DNA from: Myxococcota bacterium
Lineage (GTDB): Bacteria > Myxococcota > XYA12-FULL-58-9 > JALHOP01
Reading direction: 5' to 3'
Assembly: GCA_041288095.1 (NCBI GenBank)
Contig: JBGGMJ010000109.1
Span: 1 to 21,333 of the forward strand
Length of the DNA: 21,333 nucleotides
Shown here one piece after another: positions 5,042 through 10,908 of the stretch (position 1 is the first letter of the stretch; every line of letters begins with the position of its first letter). The notes below the pieces were generated by a model. That model had not been told where the DNA came from and searched no databases. It saw nothing but the letters and a program-made list of their open reading frames with translations. A program made the translations under genes and the position numbers.

Positions 5042-5698
5042 ATGAAATTCTTCATCGACAGCGCTGAAGTGAAAGAAATCCGCGAAGCGCACGCCATGGG
5101 TCTACTCGACGGCGTCACGACCAACCCGTCCCTCATCGCCAAGAGCGGCCGCAACTTCACCGAGGTCATCAAGGAGATCTGCGACATCGTCCCCGGCCCG
5201 GTCAGCGCCGAGGTCGTGACCCTCGATGAGAAGGAAATGATGGACCAGGCCCGGACCCTGGCCAAGATCGCCAAGAACGTCGTCGTGAAGGTCCCGCTGA
5301 CCATCCCGGGCTTGAAGACGGTGAAGGCCCTGGTGCCGGACGGTATCAAGTTCAATGTCACGCTGTGCTTCAGCGCTAGCCAAGCCCTCCTGGCCGCCAA
5401 AGCGGGCGCAAGCTTCATCTCGCCGTTCATCGGTCGTTTGGACGACGTGTCCGAGGACGGTATGCAGCTCATCCAGGACATCGTCACCATCTACGAGAAC
5501 TACCAGTTCAAGACCGAGGTCCTGGCCGCCAGCATCCGCCACCCCGTGCACGTCGTGAAATGCGCCCTCTCGGGTGCCCACGTCGCCACCATCCCGTTCA
5601 AGGTCATCGAGCAGCTCTCGAAGCACCCGCTGACCGACGCGGGCCTTAAAGGGTTCATGGCCGACTTCGAGAAAAACAAGGCGAATTTCAAGATTTAA
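5042..5698 (+). CDS. tal: Transaldolase (short FSA/TalC-type family)
   Basis: [21 protein letters not shown], Schiff-base [27 protein letters not shown]. The Glu in SAEV and Phe in SPF are transaldolase-type rather than FSA-type (Gln/Tyr). Confidence 0.93.
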
Positions 5699-5738
5699 CG
5701 CCTAGTTAGCCGCGTCACTGGTGCGTAAAACCTTTCCC

Positions 5739-5767
5739 TTGGCGAATTGCGTTAAGAACGTTACGCT
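5739..5767 (+). promoter_or_regulatory. Putative sigma70 promoter for the DAGK-family gene
   Basis: TTGGCG (5739-5744), 17-nt spacer, TACGCT (5762-5767), in AT-richer intergenic DNA. Confidence 0.45.
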
Positions 5768-5783
5768 ATTGTCACGTTCAAGA

Positions 5784-5875
5784 TGTGCGTCGGGTCAACC
5801 CCGACACAGCCACTCGTTAGGACTCGCGGTCCTTTGGGACCGCACGGTTTGGGAGAACCGGTCGTAATCGAGTGG
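5784..5875 (+). ncRNA. Candidate structured 5' leader RNA (hairpin + three-way junction), family not recognised
   Basis: Hairpin GTCGGG/CCCGAC. A closing stem CCACTCG..GAC / GTC..CGAGTGG encloses GCGGTCC-TTTG-GGACCGC and CGGTTT-GGGA-GAACCG. Confidence 0.5.
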
Positions 5876-5901
5876 GTCGTAACGCAGGAGTCGTGGTCGA
5901 A

Positions 5902-7044
5902 ATGCTTACCCCTGTGGTTGCTCCGCACGAGCGGACGCAAGAATCTCTCGCCGCCGAAACCGCGGGCCTCCCCGTAGCCCCAACCGACCCGGACAAGGTC
6001 GCGGTGTTGCTCAACCGCAACGCCCGCCGCGTCACCGACGCCCTCGCCAAGAAGCTCGGCCGTCTCGTCGGCAGCGACAACCTCTATTATTCGCGCTCGC
6101 TCGAGGAGGCCGAAGCCTTCGCGCGCGAGATCGTCCAGCGGGGCTACGGCACCGTGGTCTGCGGCGGCGGTGACGGCACCTTCGTTCAGGCCATCAACAT
6201 GGTGCAGCGCTACATCGACGAGGCCAACCAGTGGCGCGTTCAGCGCTACCTGCGCTTCGGCGAGAAGCAAACGCTCCTGGGCGAGCCGCGCTTCGCGTTC
6301 CTGCGCCTCGGCACCGGCAACGCCATCGGCCGCCTGGTCGGCGCCACCCACCCGGCCAAGGACCTCGGCCGCATCGTCGACTACCTGCCGCGCCGCACCC
6401 AGCCCATCCCGCTCATCCGCGAAGGCGACGACCGCTTCTTCTTCGCCGGCATCGGCTACGATTCGCAGCTCTTGAACGACTACAACTGGCTCAAGGCGCA
6501 CACCCACAACAAGCTCTTGAAGCCGATCATGCACAGCGTCGCCGGCTATTTCGTGGCGCTGTTCGGGCGGACCATCCCGTCCATCATGGCGGACAACAAG
6601 ACCGTCGAATGCCGGGTCACCACGGTCGGCGAGGCCTACTACGTCGATCCGGCGCGCGGTGATTTCTCGGAACGCCTCGAGCCCGGCAGCACGCTCTTCG
6701 AGGGTCCGGCGAGCTACATCGGCGCCGGCAGCACGCCTTATTACGGCTACGGCTTCCGCATCTTCCCGTTCGCTCGCATGATGCCGAACATGATGCAGCT
6801 GCGCATCTCCAACATGGGCCCCTTCCGCACGCTCGCGAACCTCCGCGGCCTCTGGGGTGGCACGCATCGCGACAGCAAGCGCATCTTCGACTTCCTGGGG
6901 ACGCACATTCGCGTCGAGCTCTCGCGGCCGCTGCCCTTCCAGCACTCGGGCGATGCGAGCGGAGAGCGCGACAAGCTCGACCTCGTGCTCGATCCATCGC
7001 CACTGCAGCTCGTCGACCTGAGCCGCGCCCGCCAGCTCGCCTGA
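5902..7044 (+). CDS. Diacylglycerol/lipid kinase family protein
   Basis: LLNRNA, CGGGDGT, LRLGTGNA and FAGIGYDS motifs. AGGAG at 5886-5890 lies upstream of ATG 5902. Confidence 0.88.
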   Translation: MLTPVVAPHERTQESLAAETAGLPVAPTDPDKVAVLLNRNARRVTDALAKKLGRLVGSDNLYYSRSLEEAEAFAREIVQRGYGTVVCGGGDGTFVQAINMVQRYIDEANQWRVQRYLRFGEKQTLLGEPRFAFLRLGTGNAIGRLVGATHPAKDLGRIVDYLPRRTQPIPLIREGDDRFFFAGIGYDSQLLNDYNWLKAHTHNKLLKPIMHSVAGYFVALFGRTIPSIMADNKTVECRVTTVGEAYYVDPARGDFSERLEPGSTLFEGPASYIGAGSTPYYGYGFRIFPFARMMPNMMQLRISNMGPFRTLANLRGLWGGTHRDSKRIFDFLGTHIRVELSRPLPFQHSGDASGERDKLDLVLDPSPLQLVDLSRARQLA

Positions 7045-7046
7045 CC

Positions 7047-7790
7047 TTGGTCATCGAGCTCTCGACTCCCGACGGACCGTGCGCGACCACCATCGTCGTT
7101 CCACCGGCCGGCAGTCCACGGCACGCGGTCATCGTCTTTCACGACGCCGCCGGCCCCAGGCCCGCGCAGACGCGCATCCTCGAGCGCATCGCCGAGATGG
7201 GCTACGTCGCCGTGCAGCCCAATCTGTTTCACCGCTCGCCGCCACTCGAGAGCTTCATCGGCGCGCCCGTCACCCTGACGGCGGTGCAGAAGGTCTTCCA
7301 GAACCCCGAGCTCAAGGCGCGCTTCATGGCCGAATACTATCAGCCGGCTCTGGGCTACCCGAACCTCGAGGCGACCGTCGGCGCCGTCCTCGCGCATCTC
7401 GAGGAAGAGCACGACGCCCGCCGCGTCGGCACGACCGGCTATTGCATGGGCGGTAACGCGAGCTTCCGCGCCGCCACCATCTTCGGCGCGCGTATCGCCG
7501 CGGCGGCCGCGTTTCATCCCGGTGGCCTCGTCACCGATCAGCCGGATAGCCCACACCTGCGGGCGCGCTCGGTGAAAGCCCGCCTCTACATCGCACCGGC
7601 GACCGGTGACCTAGCACCCGACGCCGAGGCAAAGCTGCGCGCCGCGCTCGATGCTGGAGGCGTCCACTTCGACATCGCGCACTACGATGCGAAACACGGC
7701 TACGCCGTCGAGGACGCGGCGACCCACGACGGCGCGGCAGCGGAACGCCACTACCAGGCACTCGAAACGCTCTTTCGCCAAGCCCTCTAG
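7047..7790 (+). CDS. Dienelactone hydrolase family protein
   Basis: GYCMGG nucleophile elbow, HDAAG, AFHPG, Asp in ATGD and His in KHGY. TTG start 2 nt after the DAGK stop (start uncertain). Confidence 0.9.
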   Translation: MVIELSTPDGPCATTIVVPPAGSPRHAVIVFHDAAGPRPAQTRILERIAEMGYVAVQPNLFHRSPPLESFIGAPVTLTAVQKVFQNPELKARFMAEYYQPALGYPNLEATVGAVLAHLEEEHDARRVGTTGYCMGGNASFRAATIFGARIAAAAAFHPGGLVTDQPDSPHLRARSVKARLYIAPATGDLAPDAEAKLRAALDAGGVHFDIAHYDAKHGYAVEDAATHDGAAAERHYQALETLFRQAL

Positions 7791-9010
7791 CGAGGCCCGC
7801 GGGGCATGGACCGCGGCATGGCGCGTGGGCCCGACGACGGCGCCGCGCGGAAGTTGGGACGCGCGGCCGGCGAGGCACGCATCACCGGCGCGCTTCGGGG
7901 CGTCGCGTTCACGCGGGACGAGCCGTTGAACGCCGGCTGGCTCGGCATGGCGCGCGGTGAGCTCGGCATGACGCGTGGCTGCGCTTGATTGCTCGGCGTA
8001 CGCGGCACCCCGTGGAAGTTTCCCTGGTCCTGACCCGGCGTCGAGCGCGCTCCGCCGGACTCGTGGACGCGGCTCGCGCGGTCGTCGCTCCCGGGCGCCG
8101 GCAAACGCGGCGTGGGGGCAAGACGTGGCAAGGCCGTGCGCGTGGCGTCGGTTCGACCGATATCGCGTACGCGGCCGGTGTCGAGGTCGTTCGTCCGGCC
8201 GATGTCGCGGCCGCGGCCCTCATCGAGCGCCTGCGCGTTGCTCCCGAGGTCGCCATGGTCGACGCGCGCCAAATCGCGCGCGCCGGGCCCCTGCTCCCCG
8301 AGGCGGTCGTTCACGACGTTGGCGCCGCCGTCACTCTTGGCGACGCGGAGCTGCGGCAAGCGCTCGACCTGCTGCATGCGGTTGATGTCGGTGTCACCAA
8401 CCTCGCGACGCATCGACGTGGTCACGTGGGTGTCCTGGAAGCGCTCCTCGGGCACGACGACGTAATGTTTCGGATCGACGGTACCGGCGACGTTATTGCG
8501 GACATCGGGCTGAACCGGTGCTTGATAACGGCCGCCGCGCCCGTAGCCATGGCCATGATGATGCCCGTAGTAACGGGGAGGCAGCGGTGCCCAGCCGACG
8601 AAGCCCGCGCCATAGCGCCAGCTTACCCAAGCGGGTCCCCACGAATAGCCGGGCACCCAGGCCCAACCGTAGGCCGGCGTGAAGACCCAGTTGCCGTAGT
8701 GGAACGGTGCCCAGCCCCAGACCTCGTCGGCGTGCCACGCGTAACCCCATGCCGACGTGTAACCCCAGTAGCCGGTGGTATACGGCTGCCAGCCGACGCC
8801 GACGCCCGCGGGCATCCAGATCCAACCGTAGGGCTCGCACTGCACCCATGCGCCGTAGGGGGAAAGCTGTTGATAGAAGACGTCGAAGCTCACGGGACGT
8901 GGGCCGATACTGGCGGAGACGTAGACATCGGCGCGTGACACGGCGGGCACCGTCACGACGACGGCGGCTGCGATGGCAACGCTAAAACGGACAATACGAG
9001 ATCTACTCAT
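7787..9010 (-). CDS. Secreted Trp/Tyr/Gly-rich repeat protein (DUF6600/YXWGXW-like) with a disordered Pro/Arg-rich tail
   Basis: AAGGAGG RBS before ATG 9010 and a signal peptide. Core FYQQLSPYGAW...WQPYTTGYW...WGWAPFHYGNW...WGPAWVSW...GWAPLPP, then a low-complexity C-terminus. Confidence 0.85.
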   Translation of the reverse strand: MSRSRIVRFSVAIAAAVVVTVPAVSRADVYVSASIGPRPVSFDVFYQQLSPYGAWVQCEPYGWIWMPAGVGVGWQPYTTGYWGYTSAWGYAWHADEVWGWAPFHYGNWVFTPAYGWAWVPGYSWGPAWVSWRYGAGFVGWAPLPPRYYGHHHGHGYGRGGRYQAPVQPDVRNNVAGTVDPKHYVVVPEERFQDTHVTTSMRREVGDTDINRMQQVERLPQLRVAKSDGGANVVNDRLGEQGPGARDLARVDHGDLGSNAQALDEGRGRDIGRTNDLDTGRVRDIGRTDATRTALPRLAPTPRLPAPGSDDRASRVHESGGARSTPGQDQGNFHGVPRTPSNQAQPRVMPSSPRAMPSQPAFNGSSRVNATPRSAPVMRASPAARPNFRAAPSSGPRAMPRSMPRGPR

Positions 9011-9081
9011 GATGCCCTCCTTAAGGGCCTCGGGCCGTGGCCTGCGACTTGCTTCCGACGCAGCATCCGCCTCTGACATTC

Positions 9082-9122: not shown

Positions 9123-9965
9123 CTACCAACCCGGCGGCAGGGCGGGATCCTCGGGAGTTGGCGTGAGAAAAGCGCTGCGCAACAAATCGACACAGTCGGA
9201 GCGCCCGTGATCCCAGTAGTCGTCGTTGCCGACGTCGACCACCGCGGGCCGCCAGGGCGCGCTGCCGGCGTACATGAGATCGGTCGGATCATCGCCAACG
9301 TGCGAGGCCGACCAGTGCGGCGCGCAGCGTGGAACCGCGCCCTGGGCGTGCATGAGCTCGTGCAAAGTCGCGAGCTCGATGTAGCCCGCGGGCTCGTCCG
9401 CTTTGGCGATCGGATTGTCGGCGCACGGGCGGGCGTTCGCAATCACACCGTTCAAGTAGACCACCGTGACCTGACCCACGAGGTCGGGAGGCACCGGCGC
9501 GTCGGCGCACGCATGGCTCGCCGCGCCCTCGTAGTAGGCTGTGTAGAGCTTGCCGGGTTGCAATACGCCCAGCTCGCCGAGCTCGACCTCGATGGCATCG
9601 CGAATCCGGTTGCCGCGCGAGGCGAAGCGCTCCTCGTCGGGACGCATGCGCACGAAGGTGACGTCGAGCTCGCCGTCGTAGGTGTCGAGGCGCAGGCGGA
9701 CGCCAGTCCGCTCGAACAGCCACAGCGACCAGCTCGCCACCGAGCCTCCGAGGATGCCGCGACGGTCGAGCTCGCGGTCCACCGAGTCGGCCGCGAGCAC
9801 GTACAGGATGTGGACCTGCGGGTCACTCGAGACGTCGGGATTGTCGCTCGTGAAGCGCCGGCCCAGCTCGTCGGCACCGCAGGCGCAGAAGCCCGCGGCG
9901 CTGGCGATCAGCAGCCCTGCTCGTCGGAGCCGTCGGTGCAGGTCGTGGTGCCGTCGCAGCGCCAT
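9123..9965 (-). CDS. Putative secreted/lipoprotein zinc metallopeptidase-like protein (HExxH)
   Basis: ATLHELMHAQG followed by APH..SHV..DLMY (Met-turn-like). N-terminal RRLRRAGLLIASAAGFCAC signal/lipobox. Start uncertain (ATG 9965, or near 9911). Confidence 0.65.
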   Translation of the reverse strand: MALRRHHDLHRRLRRAGLLIASAAGFCACGADELGRRFTSDNPDVSSDPQVHILYVLAADSVDRELDRRGILGGSVASWSLWLFERTGVRLRLDTYDGELDVTFVRMRPDEERFASRGNRIRDAIEVELGELGVLQPGKLYTAYYEGAASHACADAPVPPDLVGQVTVVYLNGVIANARPCADNPIAKADEPAGYIELATLHELMHAQGAVPRCAPHWSASHVGDDPTDLMYAGSAPWRPAVVDVGNDDYWDHGRSDCVDLLRSAFLTPTPEDPALPPGW

Positions 9966-10810
9966 TCCTCCCTGATGACATAGGAACCGTCGGTGCACAC
10001 GAAGACATCGTAGCCGCAGGTCGTCTCGTCGCTGCGGTCCGCGCAGTTTGGGAAGTAGTCGCAGGCCCAGTCGGCGCGAATCGAACGCACTCCGTCCGCG
10101 CAAGCGAACAGGTCCCAACCGCATCCCTCTTCGTCGGACAGGTCGGCGCAATTGGTCGAGCCGTCACACTCCCAGTCGGCGCGGATGACCGCGACGCCGT
10201 CGCCACAGACGAAGACCTCGTAACCACAATCGGTCTCGTCGCTGTTGTCGTCGCAGCTCGTGAACCCGTCGCACACCCAGTCGCCACGGATGCGCGCGAG
10301 GCCGTCGGCGCAGGCGAAGATGGTCCAGCCGCACCCGAGCTCGTCGCTGTCGTCCGCGCAGTTCGCGGAGCCGTCACACACCCAGTCCCCGCGAATGGTC
10401 TTGGCGCCGTTGGCGCAGGCGTAGAGGCCCGGCCAGTCGCAATCGGCCTCGTCGCTCTGGTCGCGGCAGCTCGCGGTGCCGTCACACCACCAATCGGCGC
10501 GGATGGCATCGACCCCGTCGGCGCATGCCGTGAGCTCCCAGCCACAATCGACCTCATCGCTGCGATCGGCGCAGTTGGCGTAACCGTCGCAGCGCCAGTC
10601 GTCGCGGATGCCGCCGATGCCGTTCGCGCAGCTGAATACCTCCCAGCCGCAGCTCGCCTCGTCGGAGAGGTCGGCGCAATCCACCGACCCGTCGCAGACC
10701 TTCAGGTAGTCCAGATCGCAGCTGTCGAGGCCCGATTCGAGGTCATCGCCACACGCGGGCGCGGCCAGGGCGAAGGCAATCACTAAAGTGTGGGCTCGGA
10801 GGTGCCGCAT
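9908..10810 (-). CDS. Lipoprotein built of LDL-receptor class A (LDLa)-like repeats
   Basis: AGGA RBS before ATG 10810 and a signal/lipobox ...ALAAPAC. One partial and 7 full repeats of about 35 aa: FxCxDGxxxIRxDWxCDGxxxCxDxSDExxC. Confidence 0.9.
   Translation of the reverse strand: MRHLRAHTLVIAFALAAPACGDDLESGLDSCDLDYLKVCDGSVDCADLSDEASCGWEVFSCANGIGGIRDDWRCDGYANCADRSDEVDCGWELTACADGVDAIRADWWCDGTASCRDQSDEADCDWPGLYACANGAKTIRGDWVCDGSANCADDSDELGCGWTIFACADGLARIRGDWVCDGFTSCDDNSDETDCGYEVFVCGDGVAVIRADWECDGSTNCADLSDEEGCGWDLFACADGVRSIRADWACDYFPNCADRSDETTCGYDVFVCTDGSYVIREEWRCDGTTTCTDGSDEQGC
9911..10720 (-). repeat. Intragenic tandem repeat array, ~105-nt unit, 8 LDLa-like units
   Basis: Recurring WxCDG and SDE codons at about 105-nt periodicity. 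The units are diverged at the nucleotide level. Confidence 0.85.
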
Positions 10811-10908
10811 ACACCGTTCCTGGCGCACGCGGGCGTCACCCACAATCTGACAGCCTGCCAGGGGTGGCCTGGGGACCGCGAAAATCAGGGCTCCGAGGAG
10901 ACCAAGGT

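Follow-up and report, generated by a model that had tools for sequence, protein, structure and literature searches.

We identified a compact, highly structured element in the 5' leader of a gene for a DAGK catalytic-domain family kinase in an uncultured Myxococcota bacterium. The element lies at positions 5789-5875, plus strand, of the window, which is the whole 21,333-nt stretch of DNA that was analysed, and RNAfold predicts it to form a hairpin (H1) followed by an almost gapless three-way junction of helices P1, P2 and P3. It is a single-copy element linked to the kinase gene, its fold has been kept in two congeneric genomes through compensatory base changes, and the sequence of P3 does not vary within the genus. 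Building on the fold, the copy number, the strand, the kinase linkage, the compensatory evolution and the P3 invariance, we propose that it is a cis-acting 5' leader of the kinase mRNA, in which a scaffold presents P3, as a sequence-specific site, to a factor. We give this reading an even chance of being correct. The features of the locus are as follows.

5051-5698, plus strand: transaldolase/fructose-6-phosphate aldolase gene, tal (Pfam TAL_FSA, E 2.2e-61).
5739-5783, plus strand: promoter-like block, with TTGGCG at 5739-5744, a 17-nt spacer and TACGCT at 5762-5767.
5789-5805, plus strand: hairpin H1, a 6-bp stem (5789-5794 with 5800-5805) and a variable 5-nt loop, UCAAC.
5810-5823, plus strand: 5' strand of P1, partner by folding 5861-5875; pairing is 5810-5816/5869-5875, 5817-5819/5865-5867 and 5821-5823/5861-5863.
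5826-5843, plus strand: P2, a 7-bp stem (5826-5832 with 5837-5843) and the loop UUUG.
5845-5860, plus strand: P3, CGGUUU-GGGA-GAACCG (5845-5850 with 5855-5860), with the closing pair U5850·G5855.
5861-5875, plus strand: 3' strand of P1, in which G5864 faces G5820 and U5868 is a bulge.
5876-5901, plus strand: linker containing the Shine-Dalgarno (SD) sequence AGGAG at 5886-5890.
5902-7044, plus strand: DAGK catalytic-domain family kinase gene, 380 aa (Pfam DAGK_cat, 37.7 bits against a cut-off of 23.6).

The helices had been proposed from the letters of the sequence in an initial annotation; every one of them was recovered at its coordinates, and RNAfold yielded an identical structure. The predicted minimum free energy (MFE) of the plus strand at 5784-5880 is -50.4 kcal/mol, compared with -34.7 +/- 3.4 kcal/mol for dinucleotide shuffles (z -4.66), and none of 200 shuffles folded as well. 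The 66-nt junction alone is more extreme still, with an MFE of -37.3 kcal/mol and a z of -5.37 (0 of 200 shuffles as good). The three junction strands measure 2, 1 and 0 nt: across the three congeners J1/2 reads UC, AC and UC, J2/3 reads A, A and G, and J3/1 is absent. The junction ends 10 nt upstream of the SD, which itself lies 11 nt upstream of the ATG at 5902. Since the minus strand folds about as well as the plus strand (z -5.56), the strand of the element could not be decided by energy alone.

Comparison within the genus set the genome of the window (G000, the reference, 90% complete) against two congeners, G001 and G002, with 98% amino acid identity in the kinase. A 206-nt intergenic query matched three of 41 relatives' genomes, one of them its own; the other two were the congeneric G002 (88% identity) and G001 (80%). 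Conservation was unevenly spread along the locus. At third codon positions of three flanking genes, identity to G000 was 64-77% in G002 and 53-72% in G001. The corresponding values were 85% and 71% for the junction, 69% and 65% for the H1 region, 98% and 84% for the block at 5739-5783, and 92% and 96% for the SD linker at 5876-5901.

Independent folding of each of the three copies gave the same architecture. In a scripted structural alignment of the three copies, 96 of 100 pair cells were standard pairs, and sliding the 3' partner by 1-3 columns reduced this to 32-52%; because the structure guided the fitting of the alignment, the paired fraction is inflated, and the figures are descriptive, covering three closely related sequences. 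Double compensatory changes were found at five pair positions, in H1, P1 and P2. In H1, G000 and G002 have G-C at 5792/5802; G001 has A-U there, as does a sediment contig (X14). In P1, pair 5812/5873 changes from A-U to G-C and pair 5817/5867 from U-A to C-G, both in G001. In P2, pair 5828/5841 takes three forms (G-C in G000, A-U in G002 and U-A in G001), and G001 has C-G in place of U-A at 5830/5839. Four more substitutions lead to G·U pairs. Two pairs of G001, 5814/5871 and 5819/5865, are broken, with a partial offset by new pairs between 5820 and an inserted C and between 5825 and 5844.

The genus is also present as DNA in soil and biofilter samples, and contigs in public data supplied further variants. 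A cave contig (X3) carries T at 5841 with 5828 unchanged, giving a G5828·U5841 wobble, and differs also in a loop and in a bulge. A soil contig (X10) has T at 5841, with 5828 outside its coverage, and a third contig (X4) is of the G002 type. The P2 loop, UUUG in G000, is UUCG in G001 and G002, and the U5868 bulge is C in X3 and absent in G001. The initial annotation had named conservation and covariation in relatives as one check to be made, and the fold is indeed kept in two congeners with compensatory changes at five pair positions. As pairing alone is conserved in them, H1, P1 and P2 probably constitute a structural scaffold.

The same alignment bears on the strand, and on whether the element acts as RNA at all. 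Seven cells of the plus-strand structure are G·U pairs, each equivalent to an A·C mismatch on the minus strand, and only two are C·A, both at one optional extra pair. Together with the UUCG/UUUG and GGGA loops, this points to an RNA read from the plus strand, the orientation first favoured for it. A feature acting at the level of DNA, such as nested palindromes bound by a protein or a mobile-repeat remnant, or else a chance arrangement, would be consistent with the equally good folding of the minus strand and with the abundance of palindromes in GC-rich genomes. Such an origin would not predict a single copy, strand-specific G·U pairs and loops, compensatory changes at five pair positions, or a fold that none of 200 shuffles equalled, and we regard it as extremely improbable. 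A multi-copy REP-like repeat had been named at the outset as a finding that would overturn the proposal; the genome's own 5.85-Mb assembly contains one full-length copy, and a 101-nt query found, besides itself, five fragments of 14-22 nt (E 3.3-6.2). An interspersed repeat of the REP or MITE type was also rejected, the element being single-copy in each of G000, G001 and G002.

The behaviour of P3 is the opposite of that of the scaffold. The 18 nt at 5845-5862, comprising P3 and two further bases, are identical in G000, G001 and G002, where synonymous sites have diverged by 23-47%. Simple arithmetic puts the neutral expectation for 18 invariant nucleotides at 0.72^18, or about 0.003, and because third codon positions have diverged far more, neutral change is an unlikely explanation of the 18-nt identity. 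The tetraloop of P3 provides the only unpaired bases of the element that do not vary; junction nucleotides and bulges differ between species. The conservation of the P3 sequence inside a covarying scaffold argues for sequence-specific recognition.

A similar arrangement was found in a second family of the class, f9. In two f9 genomes of one genus (G017 and G011), the MFE structure of the kinase leader contains a junction of the same topology, positioned between a sigma-54-like promoter and the SD, with shuffle z-scores of -1.66 and -3.66, respectively. Their P3 is CCGUU-GGGA-GACGG, in the same place as the P3 of the window and with the UU-GGGA-GA tip in common. The 18-mer around P3 is identical in the two genomes, whose P1 and P2 share no sequence and whose kinases are 76% identical. 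The pair repeats the pattern seen in the window's genus, in which the scaffold varies and P3 is fixed. Hairpins that combine a GGGA tetraloop with a stem of at least 5 bp occur at 0.002-0.004 per 100 nt of one strand, a rarity that makes their recurrence at the same position in two families unlikely to be due to chance. Two other f9 genomes differ: G015 carries CCGUC-GGGA-GCCGG, with the junction present only in a fold 4 kcal/mol above the MFE, and G019 forms a simple hairpin whose loop is AGGGA.

The relationship between the two sets of leaders is loose. A covariance model built from the three congener copies (R1), run with filters off, did not detect the f9 leaders at kinase-proximal positions; the junctions of f1 and f9 were not alignable with MAFFT, which precluded a joint covariance model. 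A kinase tree did not distinguish a sister relation of f1 and f9 from other arrangements, and common descent and convergence are not separable by it. No similar leader was found in families f3-f8 or in ten orthologues from outside the class. As a separate observation, two f6 loci (L059 and L061) share a conserved hairpin, GUGGC-(6 nt)-GUCAC, about 35-65 nt upstream of the kinase ATG, which is unrelated to the junction.

The main rival to a recognised P3 is a passive structural leader, which would shield the mRNA against 5'-end-dependent decay and insulate the SD, with P3 going unread. Nearly all bases of the element are paired, its tetraloops are of stable types and its junction strands are minimal, all of which would suit such a role. 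In G000 the SD is also predicted to be unpaired when the junction forms, with a probability of 0.99 for four of its five bases in a construct ending at +12, and H1 would lie a few nucleotides downstream of the predicted transcription start if either promoter reading described below is right. The ompA-type 5' stabilizer stem-loops offer a precedent: they likewise combine a stable hairpin near the (here predicted) 5' end, further structure and a free SD. However, the three-way junction is more elaborate than known examples, and sequence invariance of P3 would be unexpected for a pure stabilizer. Under a passive role P3 should drift in a compensatory manner, as P1, P2 and H1 have done, yet its 18 nt are invariant in the genus, and the f9 genomes G017 and G011 share a different, equally unchanged P3 18-mer despite the complete divergence of their other helices. 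We therefore consider a purely passive role rather unlikely.

The position of the element directly 5' of a metabolic gene also raised the question of a riboswitch. The initial annotation had recognized no known riboswitch, and searches bore this out: no Rfam 15 family matched at its gathering score across the whole window, and none matched at E<=10 on either strand of 5650-5950. ARAGORN predicted no tRNA or tmRNA gene in 5600-6000. Such a motif was not found described in the literature, as judged from the opening portions of abstracts. The element is thus undescribed in Rfam and, as far as those abstract openings tell, in the literature, and it is lineage-restricted.

Control of the kinase gene by a small-molecule or ion riboswitch would fit a conserved, structured leader of no known family, and three-way junctions are frequent among aptamer folds. 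The purine, TPP and c-di-GMP-I riboswitches share with the element the 5' leader position, a junction of three helices and a GNRA-type tetraloop on one arm. Unlike these, the element has no conserved ligand pocket (0-2 variable nucleotides per strand); no expression platform was found, and Rfam gave no match. Its bulges vary or vanish, and with only the P3 loop invariant among unpaired bases, the pattern is the opposite of that of a ligand-binding aptamer. No terminator-like site was found in 5400-6200; H1 is followed by ACAGCC and P1 by GUCGUAAC, with no U-tract. No conserved alternative pairing was detected, an SD-sequestering MFE structure is confined to G001, and the distribution is very narrow. 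A riboswitch, one of the roles first suggested for the element, is for these reasons very improbable. An alternative pairing of the repeated GUCGUAAC at 5876-5883 with 5815-5823 was also considered as a switch and rejected, as a hand count gave 8 of 9 pairs in G000 and 6 of 9 in G001, uncompensated.

A related proposal is a translational switch that needs no ligand, such as a thermometer or a kinetic switch. Its alternative state would have part of P1/P2 paired with the SD. The leader of G001 provides the evidence in its favour: the MFE structure of the whole leader pairs GGCUCgCUGC, which joins the 3' end of the P1 5' strand to the P2 5' strand, with the SD-containing GCAGGAGUC, at -57.3 kcal/mol compared with -50.9 kcal/mol for the junction fold. 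The 5' strands of P2 are, moreover, pyrimidine-rich (UCCU, CUCCU and CUCU). Against this, the MFE structure of G000 is the junction fold with a free SD, G002 is intermediate, and the anti-SD-like stretch is not retained in the f9 leaders. At -37 kcal/mol, the junction is too stable for a thermometer. We judge a switch of this kind to be very unlikely.

The proposal that the element regulates the kinase gene depends on its linkage to that gene. It had been placed initially in the leader of a lipid kinase gene, and its position between a conserved promoter-like block and the SD and ATG (5886 and 5902) of the DAGK-family gene agrees with this. The kinase scored below cut-off with the NCBIfam models for YegS-type lipid kinases, so we name it as a DAGK-family kinase and not by substrate. 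Its N-terminus, MLTPV, is common to the f9 orthologues. Translation of this region, as a leader peptide or as extra N-terminal residues of the kinase, was considered and rejected: the ATG at 5783 is unconserved, and indels across the element add up to a net +1 in G002.

Upstream, the element begins 91 nt past the stop codon of tal. Orthologues of the kinase are present in 20 of the 22 class genomes, and the order of tal followed by the kinase gene is repeated in families f1, f6 and f8 and, by eye, in f5. The fourth congener, G003 (84% complete), has a transaldolase gene with 80% DNA identity and unrelated DNA right past its stop codon; neither a kinase match nor the element was found in this genome. 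The f9 leaders with a related junction sit behind CorA or PGI genes and not behind tal. The absence of both kinase and element from G003, and the CorA and PGI neighbours in f9, indicate that the element travels with the kinase gene and not with the transaldolase gene.

These observations also bear on an origin as the 3' end, terminator or processing site of tal, or as an independent small RNA. With no terminator between tal and the kinase gene, read-through transcripts would include the element. However, G003 keeps tal without the element or an adjacent kinase gene, the f9 junction leaders follow other genes, neither a U-tract nor a terminator follows the element, and the conserved promoter-like block separates it from tal. 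The small RNA that had been offered as one option thus finds no support, and we hold the tal-linked and small RNA explanations together to be highly unlikely. In G003, downstream of the transaldolase gene, the first 60 nt of locus L084, a contig end where the congeners have the kinase leader, form a long near-perfect hairpin, GCGACAGACGAAACC...GGTTTCGTCGTCTGTCGC.

Further downstream, the window contains two other loci of note on the minus strand. An ORF at 9908-10843, of 311 aa, includes 105-nt tandem repeats at 9912-10736 and encodes a protein whose seven LDL-receptor class A domains match Pfam Ldl_recept_a in seven stretches (E 1.1e-51); this domain is known mostly from eukaryotes, making the protein an unusual one for a bacterium. 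A 430-aa ORF at 7787-9079 combines a DUF6600 domain (E 4.4e-31) with a long Pro/Ser/Arg-rich tail.

The putative promoter that the initial annotation had put upstream of the element remains a candidate. The arrangement TTGGCG-N17-TACGCT is present and its block is conserved, but a sigma-70 consensus scan of 5400-6200 returned no sites. Both the type of promoter and the transcription start are predictions from the conserved block at 5739-5783. The block includes a perfect inverted repeat, GAACGT (5756-5761)-N12-ACGTTC (5774-5779), which overlaps the kinase gene's candidate -10 region and is kept in both congeners, with the second arm reading ACGTTT in G001. This repeat could be the operator of a dimeric regulator, or its arms could be the -35/-10 pair of an ECF-type promoter (GAAC...CGTT).

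Orthologues outside the genus present a different picture. A regular expression for a sigma-54-type motif, TGGYRY-N5-BTGCH (B = C/G/T, H = A/C/T), matched upstream of 10 of 16 non-genus orthologues, and an eleventh (L063) was recognized by eye; the motifs lie 74-167 nt upstream of the matched kinase start (loci L057 and L059-L068). A sigma-54 promoter in the window's own leader was rejected, as inspection of 5699-5800 by eye revealed no GG-N10-GC spacing. The absence of the motif from the window's genus suggests promoter replacement in this lineage.

The element has a very narrow distribution, confined to one genus with a looser relative in one sister family. R1 found a single copy in each of three of the four genomes of the genus and none in the 18 other genomes of the class; the 22 genomes sampled represent the order, which is the entire class in this collection. 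Across a phylum sample, three of 151 genomes matched, with no match in the 129 beyond the class. The kinase protein, searched against metagenome contigs, yielded one distant relative (35% identity) from 156 candidate stretches. The exact P3 18-mer was found at 39 loci in a genome-contig collection of 185,579 species, where the only full-length matches to R1 were the two congeners (114.1 and 106.6 bits); the remaining 37 loci, with at most 22.5 bits or no score, are read as chance matches. Within G000, a loose search for P3-like hairpins returned 49 with at least three flanking pairs. Ten sites, including the element, were examined as a possible P3 regulon, and the other nine all fell inside long open frames, adding no further leaders.

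Taking these results together, we return to the reading in which P3 is recognized. Transcription from the conserved upstream block would place H1 near the 5' end of the mRNA and the compact junction ahead of the SD. H1, P1 and P2 would hold the scaffold that displays P3, a hairpin with a U·G-closed GGGA tetraloop and the tip UUGGGAGA. P3 would most likely be the recognition site of a trans-acting factor, which could be an RNA-binding protein, or else the ribosome or the 3' end of 16S rRNA, GGGAG being SD-like. Binding of the factor would then set translation initiation, the stability of the kinase mRNA or both. We infer these steps, namely transcription from the upstream block, binding of P3 by a factor and a post-transcriptional output, from the arrangement of the sequence.

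Among known RNA-binding regulators, CsrA/RsmA was the obvious candidate reader. Leaders of the glgC type carry one GGA in a loop and another in the SD, and the same arrangement is seen here: the P3 loop contains GGA at 5852-5854, and a second GGA overlaps the SD at 5887-5889. With the U·G pair open, the P3 loop would read U-GGGA-G, with the second GGA 35 nt downstream, a spacing compatible with the bridging of two GGA sites by a CsrA dimer. CsrA was nevertheless rejected as the reader of P3: its domain (PF02599) was found in none of the 22 class genomes, in a search that was positive in three of 14 controls (Escherichia coli, Bacillus subtilis and Thermotoga maritima). As CsrA was not found in the class, the reader would be another protein or the ribosome. 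The S15-type autoregulatory leaders that mimic rRNA are a second point of comparison, since they too place a protein-binding three-way junction right before the SD, although binding by our element is only proposed. The gene downstream of the element encodes a kinase and not a ribosomal protein, and no similarity of the element to the Rfam families of ribosomal-protein leaders was detected.

A more ambitious version of this proposal would give the junction the role of operator in an undescribed, RNA-based circuit controlling a membrane-lipid kinase in this uncultured class. A dedicated RNA-binding protein or ligand would read the invariant UUGGGAGA tip, which recurs in two families whose kinase genes differ in promoter, with sigma-54 used in one family and some other type in the window's genus. 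We put this forward as a speculative possibility and think it improbable as it stands.

The narrow distribution and the lack of a ligand-pocket signature limit the general importance of the element. If it functions as proposed, it would represent an undescribed structured leader RNA in a poorly studied, uncultured class of Myxococcota, and it would link post-transcriptional control to a lipid-kinase-family gene that stands under sigma-54-like promoters in relatives. The difference between a covarying scaffold and a sequence-frozen P3 gives the search for a new RNA-binding regulator a precise target.
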